Shown here: positions 542-55,184 of the stretch, one piece after another
How the letters are laid out: each line of letters begins with the position of its first letter
Position numbering within the stretch: the stretch's first letter is position 1
Sequence record: MT129654.1
Length of the DNA: 64,000 bases
Direction: 5' to 3' (one strand)
DNA from: Escherichia phage MN04
The notes under the pieces: model-generated
What the model saw: the letters and a program-made list of their open reading frames with translations, nothing else
Database searches by the model: none
Told to the model about the DNA's origin: nothing
Translations under genes and position numbers: made by a program

Positions 542-1552
542 ATGACCCGTACTGAATACATTAATGCCTTTACTACGTATATCACTGCCAACACCCCTCC
601 ATTAACCCCATATGTGGTAATAGTTTCTAATATCAATAAATGGGTCGACCAAATTGATGATGCATTATCGCGCTGTTTCAAAGCTGAAATCGAAAAGATA
701 GCGGGTCGTTTGTTTATTCCTGATATCGTAGATACATTTAAAGGTTCTCGACTGCTTTCTCGACTGGTCAATAAGGACATCCTTTCTGAGTTCGGTAAAG
801 AGAAATATCCGGGTTCTAGCCATGTTGTTAGCTACAAATGGTTTGGTGATACCATAAAAGATTATGTCAAAATTAAAGGTATGGACCCTAGTAGTTTATT
901 TCCGCAACGTTGGGTTAGCGAATTCAAGGCTAACTCTGCATTAATTCTCAAAGCGGCCTCTAAAACTATAGTTTCCGGTGATTGTCGTACTATTCACCCG
1001 ATGGCTAATTGCATGATTAAAACAAATAGTTATAAAGGAAAAGCTATTATTTCTGTTATTTGGTCACCTAATAGGAAACCTAAAGATGATGCGGAAGTTG
1101 TAAAGTATCAAGATATTGCTTACGATACCTTGAATACTATCGAACAAGCCTTAGCTTTGATGAATACAGTAGAGAAATATGAGACCCAAGAAGTTAAACA
1201 CCACTTAGGCTGGAAAGGATATGAAGTTTTAGTAACAGTTCGCGAAATCAAATACCCTGTTCTAAAAACTGACGCTGAAATTTACCAAGAAAAATGTGAG
1301 GAAATTGTGAATACTGATAAAGAGCCTGCTACATTAGAAGACTTGATTAACGACTTGAACAGCCCTATCATGGCCCATACACCAATTACTAAATCCAAGT
1401 TACCGGAAATCGTTGCCTTAGAAAAAGCGTATAAAGATGCCTTGGCTATTAACAAAAAACTGACTGGCCAATATACTGCTGCCAAGAAACTTTGGGAAGA
1501 GTCTACCAATCGTTTAGACCGTCTTGAACAAGCCCTGGAGCTGTTGAAATGA
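542..1552 (+). CDS. hypothetical early protein (336 aa)
   Basis: Long ORF; start refined to ATG 542, preceded by CTGAGGAGAA SD and a PeSL-like promoter at 484-513. Confidence 0.5.
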   Translation: MTRTEYINAFTTYITANTPPLTPYVVIVSNINKWVDQIDDALSRCFKAEIEKIAGRLFIPDIVDTFKGSRLLSRLVNKDILSEFGKEKYPGSSHVVSYKWFGDTIKDYVKIKGMDPSSLFPQRWVSEFKANSALILKAASKTIVSGDCRTIHPMANCMIKTNSYKGKAIISVIWSPNRKPKDDAEVVKYQDIAYDTLNTIEQALALMNTVEKYETQEVKHHLGWKGYEVLVTVREIKYPVLKTDAEIYQEKCEEIVNTDKEPATLEDLINDLNSPIMAHTPITKSKLPEIVALEKAYKDALAINKKLTGQYTAAKKLWEESTNRLDRLEQALELLK

Positions 1553-1770
1553 AATACCAATTAGCTGACGATATTGACCAAACTATTCCTGATTGGAATG
1601 CTGTTATTAAAATTGTCGAACGCCGTGAAAAAGCTTCTAAGAATGTTCCGAACTGTCCGGAATGTGGTACTGAACAGGTTCAGTTAGTCCAATGGCGACA
1701 TAATCCGCTTCAGTACAAATGCCGACATTGTAAGCACAAATTTGAGCGAGATGAAAATGGCAAAGCGTAA
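1549..1770 (+). CDS. small zinc-ribbon protein (CPECG...CRHCKH)
   Basis: Two CxxC pairs in the translation; start overlaps the upstream stop (ATGA). Confidence 0.45.
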
Positions 1771-1993
1771 AGAATATGTAGAGGCTGCCGATAAGGCAGT
1801 CCGCGAACTCACCGTAGCTTATTATAAAGAGCATGGTAAATTCCCGGACAGTTATTCAGTATTGAAATCTGCTTTAACTCGTTCGTATAATAATATACTA
1901 TCTGATGTGTATGATTTAAAATACGAACACCTAGAAAAATATGGAACGGAACTTGACCGTTCTGAAGCATTCAAACAAGTATTAGGAATTTAA
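1742..1993 (+). CDS. hypothetical protein (83 aa)
   Basis: ORF in the tight gene array; start uncertain. Confidence 0.4.
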
Positions 1994-3514: not shown

Positions 3515-3699
3515 TGAAAACTGTATTAGTCTATACTGAAAAGTTAAATGGCGACAAGGTATGGAAACTTCTTATCAAAGGAAGTCCTAATGACCAGTTT
3601 ATGGCTACCTGCGTAGGATTATACACTCGTCCTACCAAAAAGATGATTCGTCAATTTAAACGGTTACACCGTATGTTTTACGGTACATTTGAAAAATAA
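3514..3699 (+). CDS. small basic protein with C-terminal RPTKKMIRQFKR motif
   Basis: Shares the PTK(R/K)xIRQ basic motif with ORFs at 27309 and 28339. Confidence 0.4.
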   Translation: MKTVLVYTEKLNGDKVWKLLIKGSPNDQFMATCVGLYTRPTKKMIRQFKRLHRMFYGTFEK

Positions 3700-3734: not shown

Positions 3735-4208
3735 ATGTTGTTGACCGGCAAATTATACAAAGAAGAAAAACAAAAACTTTATGATGCACAATGTGGTAAG
3801 TGTTTGATTTGTAAACGTGAATTAAACCCTGATGTTCAAAGTAACCACCTTGACCACGACCATGAATTGAGCGGGCCAAAAGCTGGTAAGGTTCGTGGTT
3901 TACTATGTAACCTGTGCAATGCTGCAGAAGGACAAATGAAGCATAAGTTCAACCGTTCTGGTCTTAAAGGTCAAAACGTTGACTACCTCGAATGGTTAGA
4001 GAATTTGCTGGTCTATCTGAAATCTGATTACACTGAAAACAATATCCATCCTAATTTCGTTCCTGATAAAACCAAAGAGTTCAGTAGATTAGGTAAGGAA
4101 GAAATGATTGCTGAAATGCTTTCGCATGGAATGACTTATAATGAATCTGACACAAAGAAACAAATGGTCGATTCATTTAAAAAACAACTGAGGAAATCGC
4201 TTAAATGA
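3735..4208 (+). CDS. 49: recombination endonuclease VII (gp49)
   Basis: 157 aa; MLLTGKLYKEEKQK... and the HLDHDHEL...CNLCN zinc-site segment match recalled T4 endo VII. Confidence 0.9.
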   Translation: MLLTGKLYKEEKQKLYDAQCGKCLICKRELNPDVQSNHLDHDHELSGPKAGKVRGLLCNLCNAAEGQMKHKFNRSGLKGQNVDYLEWLENLLVYLKSDYTENNIHPNFVPDKTKEFSRLGKEEMIAEMLSHGMTYNESDTKKQMVDSFKKQLRKSLK

Positions 4209-15551: not shown

Positions 15552-18263
15552 ATGCAAGAATTCTATTTGACAGTCGAACAAATCGGTGATAATATTCTCG
15601 AACGTTACATCGATAAAAATGGTAAAGAACGTAGTCGTGAAGTTCCTTACAAGCCTACAATGTTTATGCATGCCAACCCAGAGCAAGCCGTAAAATATAT
15701 TGACATCTACGGTAAGGGCTGTGTTAAGAAAGAATTCGATTCAATGCGCGATGCTTCTCAGTGGATGAAGCGCATGGACGATATGGGTCTCGAAGCCCTT
15801 GGTATGGACGACTATAAATTAGCCTATTTGTCTGATACCTATCGTAAAGAAATCAAGTATGATTCTTCCAAGATTCGTATTGCTAACTTCGACATCGAGG
15901 TAACATCTCCTGATGGATTCCCTGAACCTGCTCAGGCTAAACATCCTATCGATGCCATTACTCACTACGACTCGATTGATGATAAATTCTATGTATTTGA
16001 CCTTTTAGTTTCACCTTATGGTACGGTCGAAGAGTGGTCGATTAAAATCGCTGAGAAACTCCAAGACGAAGGTGGTGACGAAGTTCCACAAGAAATCATT
16101 GACAAAATCGTTTATCTTCCGTTTAATTCTGAAGAAGAAATGATGCTTGAGTATCTGAATTTCTGGCAACAGAAAACTCCTGTGATTTTGACTGGATGGA
16201 ATGTTGAATCATTTGACGTGCCATACGTTTATAACCGTCTTAAAAATCTGTTTGGCGAGAACACTGCTAAGCGATTAAGCCCACATCGTAAGACTCGTGT
16301 TAAAGTTATCGAGAATATGTACGGTGTTCGTGAAATTATTACACTGTTCGGTATCTCTGTTCTGGATTATATCGACCTTTATAAAAAATTCAGCTTTACC
16401 AACCAGCCTTCTTATTCTCTGGATTATGTTTCTGAATATGAATTGAAAGTAGGTAAGTTGAAATATGATGGTCCTATCTCCAAGTTACGTGAGACGAACC
16501 ACCAACGATATATTTCCTATAACATTATCGACGTATATCGTGTTGTACAGATTGATATGAAACGCCAGTTCATTCTTCTGAGTTTGGACATGGGTTACTA
16601 TGCCAAGATGCAGATTCAGTCGGTGTTCAGTCCAATTAAGACTTGGGACGCTATTATCTTTAATAGCCTTAAAGAACAGGGTAAAGTTATTCCTCAGGCC
16701 AAATCGCATGCGGTTCAACCTTATCCGGGTGCTTTCGTTAAGGAACCGATTCCTAACGCGTACAAATATGTAATGAGTTTCGACCTTACATCTCTGTACC
16801 CGAGTATCATTCGACAAGTGAATATAAGCCCAGAGACCATCGCAGGGACATTCGCTAACGCACCGATACATGAATATATTGCCGGAACTGCTCCGCGTCC
16901 TAGCGACACCTACAGTTGCTCTCCTAACGGCATGATGTACTATAAAGACCGTGATGGTGTGATTCCTACAGAAATCACGAAGGTGTTCTTACAGCGTAAA
17001 GAACATAAAGGTTATATGCTTGCAGCTCAACGTAACGGTGAGTTAATTAAAGAAGCATTAGAAAATCCTAATCCGTCTGTTGATAGCCCACTGGATATCG
17101 ATTATCGTTTCGACTTCTCTGACGAAATCAAAGCCCAGATTAAAAAATTGTCAGCATCTTCTTTAAAAGAAATGTTATTCAAAGCCGAACGTACTGAAGT
17201 CGCAGGTATGACTGCTCAGATTAACCGTAAGTTGCTTATCAACTCCCTTTATGGTGCACTTGGTAACGTATGGTTCCGTTACTATGACCTCAGGAACGCA
17301 ACTGCAATCACATTGTTTGGTCAAATGGCCCTCCAATGGATTGAACGTAAGGTTAACGAATATCTGAATAGCGTGTGTAAGACTGAAAACCAGAAGTTCG
17401 TGCTTTATGGTGATACCGACTCCATTTATGTTAAGGCTGATGCAATTATCAATAAAGTAGGCGAAGATAAATTCCGTGATACTAACCACTGGGTTGACTT
17501 CTTAGATAAATTTGCACGTGAACGTATGGAACCAGCTATTGATGCAGGCTTCCGTGAGATGTGTGAATACATGAACAATAAACAGCACTTGATGTTCATG
17601 GACCGAGAAGCTATCGCTGGTCCTCCACTTGGTTCTAAAGGTCTTGGTGGATTCTGGACAGGCAAGAAACGTTATGCACTGAACGTTTGGGACATGGAAG
17701 GTACTCGTTATGCCGAACCACACTTGAAAATCATGGGTCTCGAAACCCAGAAATCAAGTACACCTAAAGCGGTTCAGAAAGCACTGAAAGAATGCATCCG
17801 TCGTATGCTTCAAGAAGGCGAGGCCTCTTTGCAAGAGTATTTCAAACAGTTTAATAAGGAATTTAACGAATTAGACTATGTAAGCATTGCTGCAGTATCC
17901 AGTGCTAACAACATTGAGAAATATAATGAAGGTGGTTTCCCTGGTTCTAAATGTCCGTACCACATCAAAGGTTGCTTAGCTTACATGCGTGCTTCTGCTG
18001 GTGATTTGACAATGCCTCGAATCGTTGATGGTGAAAAGGTATATGTACTGCCACTTAAAGAAGGCAACCCGTTCGGTGAAGCTTGTATGGCATGGCCGTC
18101 AGGTATTGAACTTCCGATTCAGATTCGTGACCAAGTCCTCCGTTGGATGGACTACAACGTACTGTTCCAAAAGACCTTTATCAAACCTCTGACCGGTTTT
18201 ACTGAGTCTGCTAAAATCGACTACGAGAAAAAAGCAACATTATTTGACATGTTCGACTTTTAA
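15552..18263 (+). CDS. 43: DNA polymerase gp43 (family B)
   Basis: 903 aa from ATG 15552 (MQEFYLTVEQIGD...); exo motifs FDIEV and YNIID, pol motifs DLTSLYPSII and YGDTDS; very close to recalled RB69 gp43. The track start 15492 is an in-frame upstream extension. Confidence 0.95.
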   Translation: MQEFYLTVEQIGDNILERYIDKNGKERSREVPYKPTMFMHANPEQAVKYIDIYGKGCVKKEFDSMRDASQWMKRMDDMGLEALGMDDYKLAYLSDTYRKEIKYDSSKIRIANFDIEVTSPDGFPEPAQAKHPIDAITHYDSIDDKFYVFDLLVSPYGTVEEWSIKIAEKLQDEGGDEVPQEIIDKIVYLPFNSEEEMMLEYLNFWQQKTPVILTGWNVESFDVPYVYNRLKNLFGENTAKRLSPHRKTRVKVIENMYGVREIITLFGISVLDYIDLYKKFSFTNQPSYSLDYVSEYELKVGKLKYDGPISKLRETNHQRYISYNIIDVYRVVQIDMKRQFILLSLDMGYYAKMQIQSVFSPIKTWDAIIFNSLKEQGKVIPQAKSHAVQPYPGAFVKEPIPNAYKYVMSFDLTSLYPSIIRQVNISPETIAGTFANAPIHEYIAGTAPRPSDTYSCSPNGMMYYKDRDGVIPTEITKVFLQRKEHKGYMLAAQRNGELIKEALENPNPSVDSPLDIDYRFDFSDEIKAQIKKLSASSLKEMLFKAERTEVAGMTAQINRKLLINSLYGALGNVWFRYYDLRNATAITLFGQMALQWIERKVNEYLNSVCKTENQKFVLYGDTDSIYVKADAIINKVGEDKFRDTNHWVDFLDKFARERMEPAIDAGFREMCEYMNNKQHLMFMDREAIAGPPLGSKGLGGFWTGKKRYALNVWDMEGTRYAEPHLKIMGLETQKSSTPKAVQKALKECIRRMLQEGEASLQEYFKQFNKEFNELDYVSIAAVSSANNIEKYNEGGFPGSKCPYHIKGCLAYMRASAGDLTMPRIVDGEKVYVLPLKEGNPFGEACMAWPSGIELPIQIRDQVLRWMDYNVLFQKTFIKPLTGFTESAKIDYEKKATLFDMFDF

Positions 18264-18265
18264 GT

Positions 18266-18295
18266 GTTTACATACCACATGGAACGTGGTAGTAT
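18266..18295 (+). promoter_or_regulatory. early promoter, PeSL-like
   Basis: GTTTAC, 18 nt, TAGTAT, then CTATCAACTACATGAGGAA. Confidence 0.5.
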
Positions 18296-18325
18296 CCTTC
18301 CTATCAACTACATGAGGAAATTATA

Positions 18326-18562
18326 ATGGAAGCTTTAATCGTTAGTGCTGGTGTTTTAGGATTTGGTTCTCTGGTTATTATGTTCATTGGTTACTTTTTA
18401 CCATGGATTCTGGCTCTTCTGCGAGGCACTCGTAGCAATGTTGGAATCTTCTTCCTTAATCTCCTGTTAGGATGGACTATGATTGGTTGGGTAGTGGCTT
18501 TAATCTGGGCTATCGTCGCTGAACGTAAATCAAACGCACAAATCATTATCGTTAAACAATGA
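18326..18562 (+). CDS. small two-TM membrane protein; Imm-like by position
   Basis: 78 aa with two hydrophobic helices, directly downstream of 43 where T4 has imm; no sequence-level confirmation. Confidence 0.4.
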   Translation: MEALIVSAGVLGFGSLVIMFIGYFLPWILALLRGTRSNVGIFFLNLLLGWTMIGWVVALIWAIVAERKSNAQIIIVKQ

Positions 18563-18703
18563 AGATAATTATTTTATTTCTTATAATGGCTGCCTTTACC
18601 ATTTATTGGGCAGTGGCAATTCCTCCAATGATTCCAACATTAATCATGGGATGGATTATTCTTATAGCACAAATTAAGTATAACTGTTTTAATTGAGGAT
18701 ATT

Positions 18704-19204
18704 ATGAAAAAGTTAATTATCGCAATGAGTATGCTCCTATCAGGTTGCGCAGTCCAATACGGTGATGCAGTTTCGGCTGATGAAGTTGGTAAAGCTCGTA
18801 TCGCAGCTGAACAGAAACAATTCGACGGCGAAATGAAATTCCGTGCCGGTTCTGGACTTGTGTATACCCGAGCTAATAATCAATGTGGTAATAACTGTGC
18901 AAAATATGCTCAAAGGGAAATCGAATTCCAACGTGAACAAGAGTCTAAGCGTGAAGCGGTACTAGCCAAACACCAGGCAGAAATGAAGCGCCAAGATGAT
19001 TTGTACAAAAAGCAGAAACTGTATTCTATGTGTGTAAACCATATCAATTTACAGATTTCTGTCCATGAGGCTCGTTATTACGAAATGCTCGAAACCGAGA
19101 GCTTCGATAAGGCTCGTGATTATAAGAAACAAATCAACAAGCTTAAGACCAAAGTGCCTGCTGCAGTAGAACAGTGCATGGAATACGGTAAAGATAAGAT
19201 TTAA
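18704..19204 (+). CDS. putative lipoprotein (166 aa)
   Basis: Signal peptide with lipobox LLSGC. Confidence 0.5.
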   Translation: MKKLIIAMSMLLSGCAVQYGDAVSADEVGKARIAAEQKQFDGEMKFRAGSGLVYTRANNQCGNNCAKYAQREIEFQREQESKREAVLAKHQAEMKRQDDLYKKQKLYSMCVNHINLQISVHEARYYEMLETESFDKARDYKKQINKLKTKVPAAVEQCMEYGKDKI

Positions 19205-28560: not shown

Positions 28561-28726
28561 GATTTCTGTATTCGAACTGTTCGAAGAATATGAAATCGTA
28601 TCAAAAGACCAAGAAGCTATCCATATTATTGCAGGTGATGGCGTAACTTGGATTATCCCACTTTACCACGAAGATACGTATGAAGTCACTGATGCAAATG
28701 GTGATAAAGCTATTTTCGTAATATAA
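28535..28726 (+). CDS. hypothetical protein (63 aa)
   Basis: ORF; start uncertain. Confidence 0.35.
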   Translation: MSAMCTGSKISVFELFEEYEIVSKDQEAIHIIAGDGVTWIIPLYHEDTYEVTDANGDKAIFVI

Positions 28727-28729
28727 ATA
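28722..28729 (+). promoter_or_regulatory. late promoter consensus TATAAATA
   Basis: Exact TATAAATA about 14 nt before the SD of the 28743 small ORF. Confidence 0.4.
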
Positions 28730-28742
28730 AGGCCAGGAGCCT

Positions 28743-28904
28743 ATGAAATCTTTTAAAGAAGTTATGAACGAAGATATGGTCGCAGGCGATGCTGGTGGAA
28801 ATCCATCTAATATTGCCTCCGGAACTACCTCAGGCGCAGTCGTCAACAAAGGGCCTGAACAAATCCCATCTAAAAAGCGTAAAGAAAAATCCGAAAACGA
28901 ATGA
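28743..28904 (+). CDS. small Gly/Lys-rich protein (53 aa) behind a late-promoter consensus
   Basis: TATAAATA at 28722-28729, then GGAG and ATG 28743. Not in the ORF track (<60 aa). Confidence 0.35.
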   Translation: MKSFKEVMNEDMVAGDAGGNPSNIASGTTSGAVVNKGPEQIPSKKRKEKSENE

Positions 28905-28942
28905 TATAATGGCTCTATTAATTTAGAGCCCAAGGAAAAATA

Positions 28943-29971
28943 ATGTCATATGTCGATAGAGAATTTGCTGTACGTGCCTTGAATTACCAACCTAAATTCA
29001 GACAAGTAACTGGTAGTGATTTTAAATTAAATTGTCGTTGCCGTGTATGTGGTGACTCCCAAAAAGATGAAAACAAAGCTCGATTCTGGGCCTATCCGGC
29101 CAATGACGGCTCTGTAATGCTACACTGTTTTAACTGTGATTATTCGGCAGGAATTAAGAAGTACCTATACGAATATGAGCCTGATTTATATCGCGAATAT
29201 ATTCTTGAGAAACATAAAGAGCAATCGTTCGGGAGACAAGCTGCACCTAAGGTGGAGATATCTGAAAAAATTAAAGCTAAGATGCCTGTCATTGAAAAGC
29301 TTAATTTCTGTGAACGATTAGATAGAATGCCGAAAGACCATCCTATTATTAAGTATGTAACTCTGCGGTGCATTCCTGAAAATAAATGGAATCGGTTATG
29401 GTTTACTAAAGAATGGCCTGCATTGGTGAATTCTGTTAATCCAGGGACCTATTCCAAAGAAATGCCTGAACCACGTTTGGTTATTCCAATTTTCAATAAG
29501 AATAAGCAAATTGAAAGTTTTCAGGGCCGAGCCTTACGTAAAGATGCTCCACAAAAATATATTACAATAAAAGCTCATGACCAAGCTACAAAAATATATG
29601 GAATGGATACAGTTGACGAACGTCAATTGGTGTGGGTAATGGAAGGTCCTATTGATTCATTATTCGTACCTAATGCAATAGCAATTACTGGTGGGTCGTT
29701 GGACTTGGCTATGGTTCCGTGTAAAGAAACTCGTGCCTGGGTAATGGACAATGAACCCCGTCATCCTGACACAATTAAGCGTATGCAACGATTAGTTGAT
29801 GCCGGCGAAAGGGTCCTATTCTGGGACAAGGCTCCATGGCCTTCTAAAGATATAAATGATATGGTTATGAAAGATAAAGCTGATATAAATGATATATTGA
29901 CGTATATGAAAGCTAATATAGCCCAAGGGTTAATGGCAAAAATGAGGCTTTCAAAATATTCTAAAATTTAG
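28943..29971 (+). CDS. 61: DNA primase gp61
   Basis: 342 aa; zinc ribbon CRCRVCGDS...CFNC and VMEGPIDSLF Toprim; matches recalled T4 gp61. Confidence 0.9.
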   Translation: MSYVDREFAVRALNYQPKFRQVTGSDFKLNCRCRVCGDSQKDENKARFWAYPANDGSVMLHCFNCDYSAGIKKYLYEYEPDLYREYILEKHKEQSFGRQAAPKVEISEKIKAKMPVIEKLNFCERLDRMPKDHPIIKYVTLRCIPENKWNRLWFTKEWPALVNSVNPGTYSKEMPEPRLVIPIFNKNKQIESFQGRALRKDAPQKYITIKAHDQATKIYGMDTVDERQLVWVMEGPIDSLFVPNAIAITGGSLDLAMVPCKETRAWVMDNEPRHPDTIKRMQRLVDAGERVLFWDKAPWPSKDINDMVMKDKADINDILTYMKANIAQGLMAKMRLSKYSKI

Positions 29972-30168
29972 ACAGGAACTCCGCTAAAGAATCCAATTAT
30001 GCTTAATACGTGTTCCATTGTAACCGCTGGTAAAATTACCCCTTGGCTAGCGGCTACAGGAACTACTAAAAGATTCCAAAGGAATACGTCTAGCGCAAGA
30101 AAACCTAACATCATTTTCTTGTCTTTCTTTTCAGCCAATTTCCAGATTTGGTAAAAAATACTACCCAT
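29968..30168 (-). CDS. small hydrophobic protein on the opposite strand (66 aa)
   Basis: Strong SD (AGGAGG, 6 nt before ATG) on the - strand between 61 and 56; hydrophobic C-terminal half. Confidence 0.45.
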   Translation of the reverse strand: MGSIFYQIWKLAEKKDKKMMLGFLALDVFLWNLLVVPVAASQGVILPAVTMEHVLSIIGFFSGVPV

Positions 30169-30262
30169 GTTATCCTCCTGTTAAATTAATATTTATTCGC
30201 TTTAATCTAGCAGTTTATAATTATCTAACTTACTAACAAATGAATTGATAAGGAAAAATATA

Positions 30263-30784
30263 ATGGCTCATTTTAATGAATGTTCTCAACTGATTGCCGG
30301 TGCCGATAAAGCTGAAGAAGCTTATTTTAATGCTCTGATTCACGAAGATAAAGACCCTCTGCAGGTTATGCTTGATATGCAGAAATCTTTGCAGGTTCGT
30401 TTAGCTAAAGATAAGCCTGAATATAATCGTCATCCTGATGATTTGGCCACTGCGGGTGAAGTTGTCGATTGGCTTCGCAACCAGAAAGATTATATTGATG
30501 ACGAATTCCGTGAACTTCTGACTTCTCTTGGTGGTATGAGTAATGGTGAAAAAGATGCATCTGCAGTATGGAAGCCTTGGAAAGCTCAACATGCTGAACG
30601 TCGTGAAACCCTGATTAACGATTTGTCTCCTGAAGACCAGCTCGAAATTAAATTCGAAATGATTGATATTCTGCACTTTGTTCTGAATATGTTCCAGGGT
30701 CTTGGACTGACCGCTGAAGAAATCTTTAAACTGTATTACCTTAAAAATGCCGAGAACTTTGCTCGTCAAGACCGAGGTTATTAA
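30263..30784 (+). CDS. 56: dCTPase/dUTPase gp56 (MazG-like)
   Basis: 173 aa from ATG 30263; at the T4 gene 56 locus; function from recalled homology. Confidence 0.75.
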   Translation: MAHFNECSQLIAGADKAEEAYFNALIHEDKDPLQVMLDMQKSLQVRLAKDKPEYNRHPDDLATAGEVVDWLRNQKDYIDDEFRELLTSLGGMSNGEKDASAVWKPWKAQHAERRETLINDLSPEDQLEIKFEMIDILHFVLNMFQGLGLTAEEIFKLYYLKNAENFARQDRGY

Positions 30785-30786
30785 GT

Positions 30787-30794
30787 TATAAATA
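30787..30794 (+). promoter_or_regulatory. late promoter (TATAAATA) for soc
   Basis: Exact TATAAATA about 20 nt before the soc SD; soc is a late capsid gene in T4. Confidence 0.6.
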
Positions 30795-30825
30795 CACCTG
30801 TAATTAAACAACAAAGGAGTTAATT

Positions 30826-31059
30826 ATGGGTGGTTTCGTTAATATCAAAACCTTTACGCATCCAGCTGGTGAAGGTAAAGAAGTTAAAGGTACTGAGGTT
30901 TCAGTCCCGTTTGAAATCTATTCAAATGAGCATCGTATTGCCAATGCTCATTATCAGACTTTCCCTTCGGCCGTTGCAGCCTATACTACTGTAGTGACTG
31001 ATGCAGCCGATTGGCGAACTAAGAACGCGGCGATGTTTACGCCAACTGATATTGTTTAA
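30826..31059 (+). CDS. soc: small outer capsid protein Soc
   Basis: 77 aa; FVNIKTF...AHYQTFPS matches recalled T4 Soc; exact late promoter TATAAATA 30787-30794 upstream. Confidence 0.8.
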   Translation: MGGFVNIKTFTHPAGEGKEVKGTEVSVPFEIYSNEHRIANAHYQTFPSAVAAYTTVVTDAADWRTKNAAMFTPTDIV

Positions 31060-54232: not shown

Positions 54233-54508
54233 ATGACTAAAATTGAAATCGTTTCCGAAATTGCTACTATTGTTTCCATTTTGATTAAAACGGATTGTGA
54301 AGACATCATGCAACGCCGTGATGAGTTTATTGCCTTTTTGAATGAGTTGGGTATTCGTAATGAACATGGAAAGGAACTTAACGGTCTATCTTTTAATAAA
54401 CTCTTTAAGTCTTTAACTGAAGATGAACGTGATACTCTTATTGAGCAATTTAATGAAGGGTATGAAGATATACACCGTTATCTAATGATGTATACCTCCA
54501 ATTTTTAA
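54233..54508 (+). CDS. asiA: anti-sigma70 factor AsiA
   Basis: 91 aa; IVSILIK...FIAFLNELGI...LIEQFNEGYEDIHRYLMMYT matches recalled T4 AsiA. Confidence 0.8.
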   Translation: MTKIEIVSEIATIVSILIKTDCEDIMQRRDEFIAFLNELGIRNEHGKELNGLSFNKLFKSLTEDERDTLIEQFNEGYEDIHRYLMMYTSNF

Positions 54509-55158
54509 CGAGTTCGACCTAATGTCCTCCCGGCCTGACCACACATAGACGAAAGTCTAGGAAATCCTAAATCCGGTTTGATGTCATACCAGTATAATGA
54601 TATCGAACCGGCATAGATGTTATCCAAATTAAAAAACGGACATGAAAACATATACGTGAAATGGGTTTTCTTCTTTGTAGGAAGGAACACAGTTTCTGTA
54701 CTTGATTCAAAATAATTCCCGTTAACTCCCGCCATATACTCCACTGACGTTTTGTCAATCGGAAATCCTCCCGTATTTTTTGCGTCTACCGTTTCCGGTA
54801 ATTTACCCTCATAAGCAACCATGTCCACAAAATAATTCATGTTGGTTGGTCTAAAAGAATATATTGCTGTGAAGTCTGCGCCTGAAGAAGAATGCACTAT
54901 TCGGAGCTGCTCGATAGCCGCAATTTTAAATCTATTGTCCTGGTCTTGTCTAATCATTTCAGTATAAGAGGCATAAGTTGTCTCTTTATAAAAGTTTAGA
55001 ATATATTCGCCTTTATACCAAACCAGTGCCATAAAGAACAATAATATTACGACTAGGACCCGGGAAAAAACTACTTTCCCGGAAGAAGTATCTTTAAAAA
55101 TTCTATCAAGAAGTCCAAAAAGTAGGTCTGATAATGAAAATCCTACTTTTGGTTCCAT
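54505..55158 (-). CDS. t: holin T
   Basis: 217 aa; DLLFGLLDRIFKD, single N-terminal TM, YSFRP...YFVD..AYEGKLP, CPFFNLDNIYAG match recalled T4 T; late promoter TATAAATA just upstream. Confidence 0.9.
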   Translation of the reverse strand: MEPKVGFSLSDLLFGLLDRIFKDTSSGKVVFSRVLVVILLFFMALVWYKGEYILNFYKETTYASYTEMIRQDQDNRFKIAAIEQLRIVHSSSGADFTAIYSFRPTNMNYFVDMVAYEGKLPETVDAKNTGGFPIDKTSVEYMAGVNGNYFESSTETVFLPTKKKTHFTYMFSCPFFNLDNIYAGSISLYWYDIKPDLGFPRLSSMCGQAGRTLGRTR

Positions 55159-55176: not shown

Positions 55177-55184
55177 TATTTATA
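55177..55184 (-). promoter_or_regulatory. late promoter (TATAAATA) for holin t
   Basis: Reverse complement of TATTTATA gives exact TATAAATA on the - strand, just upstream of the t SD. Confidence 0.6.

Follow-up and report, generated by a model that had tools for sequence, protein, structure and literature searches.

A dam.1-type gene with late-type signals and a predicted membrane product, read against genes 61 and 56 of a Dhakavirus

The early region of the phage studied here contains a small ORF that is read against its neighbors, gene 61 and gene 56. It raises the question of whether the ORF is a gene, when it would be expressed, and what its product would do. We addressed this question in the window, which is the whole stretch of 64,000 nucleotides that was analyzed. 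The source phage is a JS98-like Dhakavirus, and bases 28900 to 30800 are 99.2% identical to Escherichia phage JS98.

The opposite-strand ORF and its T4 homolog

A sequence-only reading of this DNA had described a 66-aa ORF on the minus strand between genes 61 and 56, with a near-perfect Shine-Dalgarno (SD) sequence. We confirmed both the ORF, which has an ATG start, and its SD sequence. The locus has the following features.

28943..29971, plus strand: gene 61, DNA primase (PHROG 47, E=1.3e-97; JS98 annotation)
29968..29971, both strands: convergent stop-codon overlap of 4 nt (TTAG) between the TAA of the ORF and the TAG of gene 61
29968..30168, minus strand: CDS of a 66-aa Dam.1-family protein (ATG 30166-30168, TAA 29968-29970; from the ORF list)
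30174..30179, minus strand: Shine-Dalgarno sequence AGGAGG, 5 nt before the ATG (direct sequence reading)
30190..30197, minus strand: late-promoter-like box AATAAATA (TATAAATA with A at -13), 21 nt before the ATG
30199..30221, plus strand: possible MotA-type middle promoter for gene 56 (GCTTTA, 11 nt, TATAAT; sequence reading)
30263..30784, plus strand: gene 56, dCTPase (PHROG match; JS98 annotation)
30826..31059: soc, after gene 56

The product of the ORF is MGSIFYQIWKLAEKKDKKMMLGFLALDVFLWNLLVVPVAASQGVILPAVTMEHVLSIIGFFSGVPV, and the minus strand reads CAGGAGGATAAC-ATG at its start. A GGAG/AGGAGG box precedes the homologs that we compared, except for the promoterless second copy in phage VR25, which has GGTGG. 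The putative gene 56 promoter resembles the T4 middle-promoter consensus, and it stands back-to-back with the late-promoter box of the ORF. No terminator-like site was predicted in 29300 to 30400. The dam.1-type gene is present as a single copy within the 64-kb window.

The sequence-only reading had also stated that T4 has dam near this locus instead of the ORF. This was wrong. In the T4 reference (NC_000866), dam is at 16846..17625 and gene 61 is at 17935..18963, and there is an unannotated gap of 309 bp between them. The gap holds a 66-aa ORF on the opposite strand (NC_000866 17738..17938), with the product MVQKLMALVNAIKGNKKRIAFTISTMVGILLWNFILSPVAIAHGVNIPVVTLDTFVDLAFALVGLI. Because T4 carries this homolog beside dam, we rejected the idea that the ORF of the window is a replacement of dam. 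The T4 homolog is unannotated in both reference records, NC_000866 and AF158101. T4-type homologs are named dam.1 (hypothetical) in T4T, RB32ORF030w in RB51, and RB69ORF029w in RB69.

T4 Dam.1 and the window protein have the same length of 66 aa, and their genes overlap the stop codon of gene 61 to the same extent. The two also have in common an LWN-x4-P-x-A-x3-G-x3-P-x-V motif, the position and orientation relative to gene 61, and the upstream block ATAAATAttaatttaa-AGGAGGAT. However, the overall identity of the two proteins is only about 18%. The window protein represents a distinct JS98-type subfamily with an MGSIFYQIWKL N terminus, and the neighbor on the other side is gene 56 in the window but dam in T4.

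The convergence with gene 61 was found in the window and in 12 other genomes, that is, in all Tevenvirinae genomes examined. The convergent genes overlap by up to 24 nt or lie up to 18 nt apart in T4, RB69, VR25, Marfa, Q7622, and CGG4-1, and likewise in Kosakonia 305, PEi20, PM2, Roth20, and STP4-a. The gene 61 side is invariant, whereas the opposite neighbor varies and can be dam, gene 56, a homing endonuclease gene, or an unknown gene. CGG4-1 and STP4-a have different Dam.1 subtypes at the same slot, and Gapriverviruses such as VR25 carry tandem duplicates of the dam.1-type gene. RB49 (Krischvirus) has no homolog at its 56-61 locus, because a mere 14 nt separate the two genes there.

Conservation and spread of the family

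An opposite-strand frame of this size might be a chance ORF that makes no product, lying in a regulatory spacer with the promoter of gene 56 or an origin region. The ORF is unannotated in the JS98, JS10, and IME08 records as well as in the T4 references, and the spacer also seems to hold the middle-type promoter for gene 56. However, we estimated from base composition that the chance of a 66-codon open frame at 39% GC is p~0.01, and conservation speaks more strongly for a gene. The codon comparison of the window with Marfa gave a pS of 0.80 and a pN of 0.13, so that pN is far below pS and synonymous sites are saturated. The dN/dS ratio was 0.17 for the window versus PM2, and 0.07 for Kosakonia 305 versus PEi20. 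The frame, the length (62 to 74 aa in Tevenvirinae), and the motif are kept across genera whose flanking DNA no longer aligns. These conservation data effectively refute the chance-ORF reading, to which we give almost no weight. The 66-aa ORF is a real gene under purifying selection, and it is syntenic.

The window protein matched the PHROG 2024 profile over its full length (E=6.5e-28; residues 1 to 64 of a 65-position profile). The same profile was matched by all 19 diverse family members in our alignment, with E-values down to 1e-31. Proteins that are 100% identical to the window product are found in other Dhakavirus genomes, for example UP19, where they are labeled hypothetical. The sequence-only reading had proposed a look at close relatives, and the ORF is indeed present in them. 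A tblastn search with the JS98-type protein of the window matched 121 phage records, which span Dhakavirus, Gaprivervirus, Marfavirus and other Klebsiella phages, Kanagawavirus, Mosugukvirus, and Gelderlandvirus. A T4-type query matched 693 records, and a third-subtype query matched 279 records, mostly of Klebsiella phages; the three record sets overlap. A profile search of 1.84 billion representative proteins returned 16 clusters in all, and the Dam.1 family is therefore narrow. The family is already catalogued (dam.1 / PHROG 2024), but it is uncharacterized.

Distant homologs occur in a different type of phage. They are the proteins P0077, P0074, and P0075 and an unannotated 57-aa ORF of phage DCP80. 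The gene order in this second lineage is a J-like tail tip protein, a TM/coiled-coil protein, endonuclease VII, and then the homolog, in what looks like a late cluster. The homolog is followed by proteins of about 180 aa and about 100 aa at three of the four loci, the exception being L020. A T4-lysozyme-type endolysin gene lies at most 1.3 kb from the homolog at two of the four loci (L015 and DCP80), but not in L020. The link with endolysin is a loose one, and the adjacency is not seen in the window or in T-even phages, in which the gene sits between 61 and 56 or dam. A late box of the Aeh1 type, CTAAATA, is located 20 nt upstream of the L015 homolog (PMC1524935).

Late-promoter motif and predicted membrane topology

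Of the 14 Tevenvirinae genes examined, 12 have a late-promoter-type motif (NATAAATA) upstream, at a distance of 13 to 21 nt from the ATG. The upstream boxes are as follows.

Marfa, Q7622, Kosakonia 305: perfect TATAAATA
This window, RB69: AATAAATA
T4 (NC_000866 17709-17716), PM2: GATAAATA
VR25 first copy, PEi20, Roth20: CATAAATA
Two Gelderlandviruses: TATTAAATA, which is off-consensus

In VR25, only the first of the two tandem copies has a motif, and the second copy follows it as in an operon. The box in the window is an A(-13) variant, predicted as a promoter from its sequence. In a list of 50 T4 late promoters, 32 are perfect and 9 have A at -13, so that A(-13) is the variant seen most often in T4 (PMC2988020). 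Relatives commonly have T or A at -13 (PMC1524935). The site before the RB69 homolog is absent from a published list of RB69 late promoters that was made with an HMM.

The two strands of the 64-kb window together have only nine NATAAATA sites, whereas we estimated from base composition that roughly 30 would be expected. Further sites among the nine precede endonuclease VII gene 49, 61.1, soc, and holin gene t. The motif is therefore informative here, because it is rare in the window and otherwise marks these genes. In T4, soc, 49, and t are late genes in early regions, and they have the same promoter-type motif shortly before a strong SD sequence. In the window, soc is only 650 bp from the dam.1-type gene and has a perfect TATAAATA. 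However, soc and 49 have the same orientation as the early genes, whereas the dam.1-type gene is on the opposite strand, like t. Both the strand and the late-type signal of the 66-aa ORF thus match those of holin t. These motifs indicate that the dam.1-type gene is probably a gp55-dependent late gene, and the box would place its transcript start near 30184 (about 17722 in T4). With no predicted terminator separating the ORF from gene 61, late transcription of the ORF would continue into the primase gene in the antisense direction. In Roth20, a GC-rich hairpin lies within the 18-nt gap between the homolog and gene 61.

All Lys and Arg residues of the window protein are at positions 10 to 18. 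The sequence-only reading had noted a hydrophobic C-terminal half; the protein is hydrophobic, but the hydrophobic part extends over residues ~19 to 66 and is not limited to that half. The Kyte-Doolittle plot with a 19-residue window has its maximum of 2.05 at residues 21 to 39. An AF2 model built from a 21-sequence alignment (mean pLDDT, 72.8) has helices at 2 to 11, 14 to 41, and 51 to 62 and a loop at 42 to 50. For the RB69 homolog, RB69ORF029w, Nolan et al. predicted one TM segment at 21 to 41 and no signal peptide (PMC1524935 additional file 2). The TM helix that the sequence-only reading had wished to see predicted is thus borne out by hydropathy, the AF2 model, and the published call. 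However, the helix is only marginal on the Hessa scale (by hand calculation rather than from a tool) because of D27, N32, and P37.

Among the 19 diverse family members, P37 is invariant, and W31, N32, P47, and G63 are conserved in at least 90%; an acidic residue follows the loop. The window protein contains the core motif W-N-x4-P ... G-x3-P ... acidic as W31, N32, P37, G43, P47, and E52. The Dam.1 subtypes differ in the N-terminal segment and the C-terminal helix. The Lys cluster before the helix predicts an N-in topology by the positive-inside rule, and from hydropathy, the AF2 model, and the TM call for the RB69 homolog, we infer that the protein is inserted into the membrane in this orientation. 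The conserved Asn and Pro inside the TM helix suggest a specific helix-helix contact. We rejected a lipoprotein or a spanin, since the sequence has no Cys. A secreted protein was rejected because no signal peptide was predicted for the RB69 homolog. The sequence-only reading had supposed a late or independently regulated membrane protein, and this view is partly supported, by the late motif in 12 of 14 genes and by the predicted helix. Superinfection exclusion and lysis timing, which it had named as possible functions, are candidates only, and no sequence or fold match to Imm, Sp, holins, or antiholins was found.

We then compared the protein with characterized families. The window protein had no Pfam match at an E-value of 10 or below, and neither it nor other family members had a significant NCBIfam match. 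With the window protein and 19 diverse members, nothing beyond PHROG 2024 was significant in PHROG, Pfam, or NCBIfam. Weak, short, and nonsignificant matches were given by one or two of the 19 members each (GTA_holin_3TM, E=0.081; phrog_3427, E=0.0023; phrog_11161, E=0.012), and some of these were to holin families. A Foldseek search of BFVD with the AF2 model returned only family members plus noise, and the profile search of 1.84 billion representatives gave no link to any characterized family. We found nothing in the literature on dam.1, RB69ORF029w, RB32ORF030w, or T4Tp032, and the HIDEN-SEQ preprint does not mention the dam.1 locus. The database labels "Holin," "DNA packaging ATPase," and "dCTP pyrophosphatase" on homologs are unsupported; the "Holin" label is on one UniRef entry, a T4-type homolog.

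Candidate roles of the protein

We consider it reasonably likely, judging from signals and predicted structure taken as a whole, that the gene encodes a late inner-membrane protein. The gene is the Dhakavirus copy of T-even dam.1 / RB69ORF029w / PHROG 2024, and it would be a late gene within an early region. In this scenario, gp55-RNA polymerase probably transcribes it from the AATAAATA box, a putative late promoter 21 nt upstream of the start codon, and translation would then start from the strong AGGAGG site. The 7-kDa product would probably be inserted N-in into the inner membrane. It would consist of a short N-terminal helix, a Lys-rich cytoplasmic anchor (K14 to K18), and one TM helix at ~19 to 41, with the Trp-Asn...Pro motif that is conserved in the family near the periplasmic end of the helix. 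The conserved G-x3-P loop, acidic E52, and a short hydrophobic C-terminal helix would follow. The conserved polar Asn and the Pro within the helix suggest contact with another copy of the protein or with a partner membrane protein.

What such a protein might do is a more speculative matter. Our leading candidate, held only tentatively, is an accessory protein, and not a holin, that tunes late envelope events; the timing of holin-dependent lysis or lysis inhibition would be the most plausible of these. The distant homologs of the second lineage offer one lead, because their surroundings may be a late or lysis neighborhood. Small holins and antiholins, such as class II holins and T4 RI and RIII, are similar to it in size, membrane anchoring, and presumed late expression. 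Holins have at least one TM domain, which is also predicted in the window protein; its second hydrophobic segment is a borderline TM candidate. However, holins have a hydrophilic, highly charged C-terminal tail, whereas the C terminus of the window protein (IIGFFSGVPV) is uncharged and the charge lies toward the N terminus. The window protein showed no significant similarity to the holin or antiholin families, either in sequence or in fold. T4 t mutants reportedly do not lyse, so the Dam.1 protein cannot be a redundant holin. ORF52 of phage BSPM4 is a 64-aa, single-TM holin modulator encoded outside the lysis cassette (PMC11657625). Its likeness to Dam.1 is by analogy, in architecture only, including the location away from the endolysin gene. 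A bolder version, which we regard as doubtful, is that Dam.1 is an overlooked late component of T-even lysis control, acting as a TM partner of holin T that sets lysis timing or takes part in lysis inhibition, and that its promoter may in addition silence primase mRNA by convergent antisense transcription.

The same predicted location in the inner membrane would also suit a late superinfection-exclusion or immunity protein that, like Imm or Sp, blocks the entry of secondary-phage DNA or envelope damage. T4 Imm and Sp are likewise small T-even envelope proteins from the same early-region neighborhood, and the locus is near sp in these genomes. The exchange of divergent subtypes between close relatives (CGG4-1 versus STP4-a) and the tandem duplicates in Gapriverviruses form a pattern that is typical of conflict genes. 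However, exclusion must act early, and Imm and Sp are accordingly encoded by early genes on the early strand; the dam.1-type gene, by contrast, has late-type signals and is on the opposite strand. Neither the window protein nor other family members matched PF14373 (Imm_superinfect) or PF25676 (T4_Spackle), and no fold match to Imm or Sp was found; true Imm and Spackle genes are present elsewhere in related loci. The central motif is also conserved and not diversifying, and an exclusion role is therefore unlikely in our judgment. We regard as improbable a morphogenetic or virion-associated role, in which the small hydrophobic protein would be a membrane-bound helper of head assembly or a particle component for DNA passage at the inner membrane. 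Its putative late-class regulation would be like that of structural genes, and the second-lineage homolog adjoins tail-tip and EndoVII genes. The protein could also have been easily missed by virion proteomics, because with Lys and Arg confined to positions 10 to 18, trypsin would leave one hydrophobic peptide of ~48 residues. However, there was no match to a structural family, and the gene is outside the structural operons in T-even phages. The absence at the RB49 locus, together with the lack of homologs from other T4-like groups among the 16 clusters, suggests that the protein is not part of the shared virion machinery.

A quite different reading holds that the locus is mainly regulatory, with late antisense transcription into the 3' end of gene 61 shutting down the early mRNA and the peptide being secondary. 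The invariant convergence with gene 61, usually with an overlap of its stop codon, would agree with this, as would the lack of a predicted terminator between the two genes in the window. Some sites are also known in T4 where transcription uses one strand at one time and the other strand at another (PMC2988020). However, the amino acid sequence is under strong purifying selection, and the SD sequence is conserved. In addition, Roth20 has its hairpin between the two genes, and the second-lineage homolog is not convergent with a primase gene. We therefore regard a mainly regulatory role as very unlikely, and a late inner-membrane protein is the reading that we prefer.

A late inner-membrane protein of this kind could be a further player in lysis timing, in lysis inhibition, or in the biology of the envelope late in infection. 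This phage family has T4 as its reference model, yet NC_000866 and AF158101 omit the conserved dam.1 gene. Therefore, genome-wide T4 studies that are based on these records never score it; a time-resolved RNA-seq and proteomics study of T4 used NC_000866, which leaves dam.1 unannotated. The ~48-residue tryptic peptide would also make the protein nearly invisible to standard shotgun proteomics. Because of its wide conservation in Tevenvirinae, its late-type signals, and its probable membrane location, the gene is a cheap and well-defined knockout target. A practical outcome is an annotation fix for T4, JS98, JS10, IME08, and other genomes, with removal of the three wrong labels from the homologs.

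The T4 homologue and the names of its relatives

In the T4 reference records (NC_000866 and AF158101), the dam-61 interval is 309 bp long and unannotated. An intact 66-aa homologue of the small gene lies inside this gap in both records, and is accompanied there by an SD sequence and an GATAAATA box.

17738..17938 of NC_000866 (4239..4439 of the T4 locus, L003), + strand: T4 homologue

Its one annotation, as dam.1, is in the T4T record, HM137666. Elsewhere in public records, the homologues of CGG4-1, dhaeg and dhabil are labelled "dCTP pyrophosphatase", those of several Klebsiella phages go under "DNA packaging ATPase", and UniRef lists the OE5505 homologue as "Holin". These three names are wrong or unsupported.

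Transcription signals around the small gene and elsewhere

Late boxes before the holin t and gene 49 homologues served as the internal positive control for the late-box motif in the window.

3735..4208, + strand: endonuclease VII gene 49 homologue, late box upstream at 3698 (+)
28722..28729, + strand: perfect TATAAATA
28743..28904, + strand: gene 61.1
30199..30221, + strand: candidate MotA-type middle promoter of gene 56
54505..55158, - strand: holin t homologue (217 aa, PHROG 860), late box upstream at 55184 (-)

Because a perfect TATAAATA is found 13 nt upstream of its ATG, 61.1 may also be transcribed late, and possibly the downstream primase gene 61 is as well. The candidate promoter of gene 56 consists of GCTTTA and TATAAT separated by an 11-nt spacer, and looks like a MotA-type middle promoter. 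It is oriented back-to-back with the small gene's late box, at a distance of 1 nt. In Roth20, the small gene and gene 61 are separated by 18 nt (about 1693..1710 of locus L013), and this gap holds a GC-rich hairpin, AAGGGGCTTTGGCCCCT, that may be a bidirectional terminator. A hairpin of this type is absent in the window.

Tandem copies and exchange of subtypes

In Gapriverviruses (VR25, and the tblastn matches for SP18, RZ, P896 and VR20), the gene is present as a tandem pair of paralogues, of which the first is RB69-like and the second JS98-like.

1495..1692 and 1701..1901 of the VR25 locus (L006): tandem copies

In several of these phages, the second copy gives a match that is partial (residues 28 to 65) or split, which suggests decay. 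CGG4-1 (L009) and STP4-a (L014) are both Gelderlandviruses and hold different subtypes in an identical slot beside gene 61. This difference within one genus points to a cassette-like exchange of small-gene subtypes.

DCP80 and the second lineage

The 141-kb DCP80 record (PQ671644.1; locus L022, positions 1 to 45000) is labelled Gaprivervirus and contains two family members. It combines T4-like early genes (motA, ndd and rIIA) with a structural module that is not of T4 type (large terminase, J-like tail tip, EndoVII and endolysin), and is either a mis-assembly or a genuine mosaic lineage. The same structural module recurs in three metagenomic contigs with distant homologues (L015, L019 and L020), and in L020 a T4_Cef homologue lies close by.
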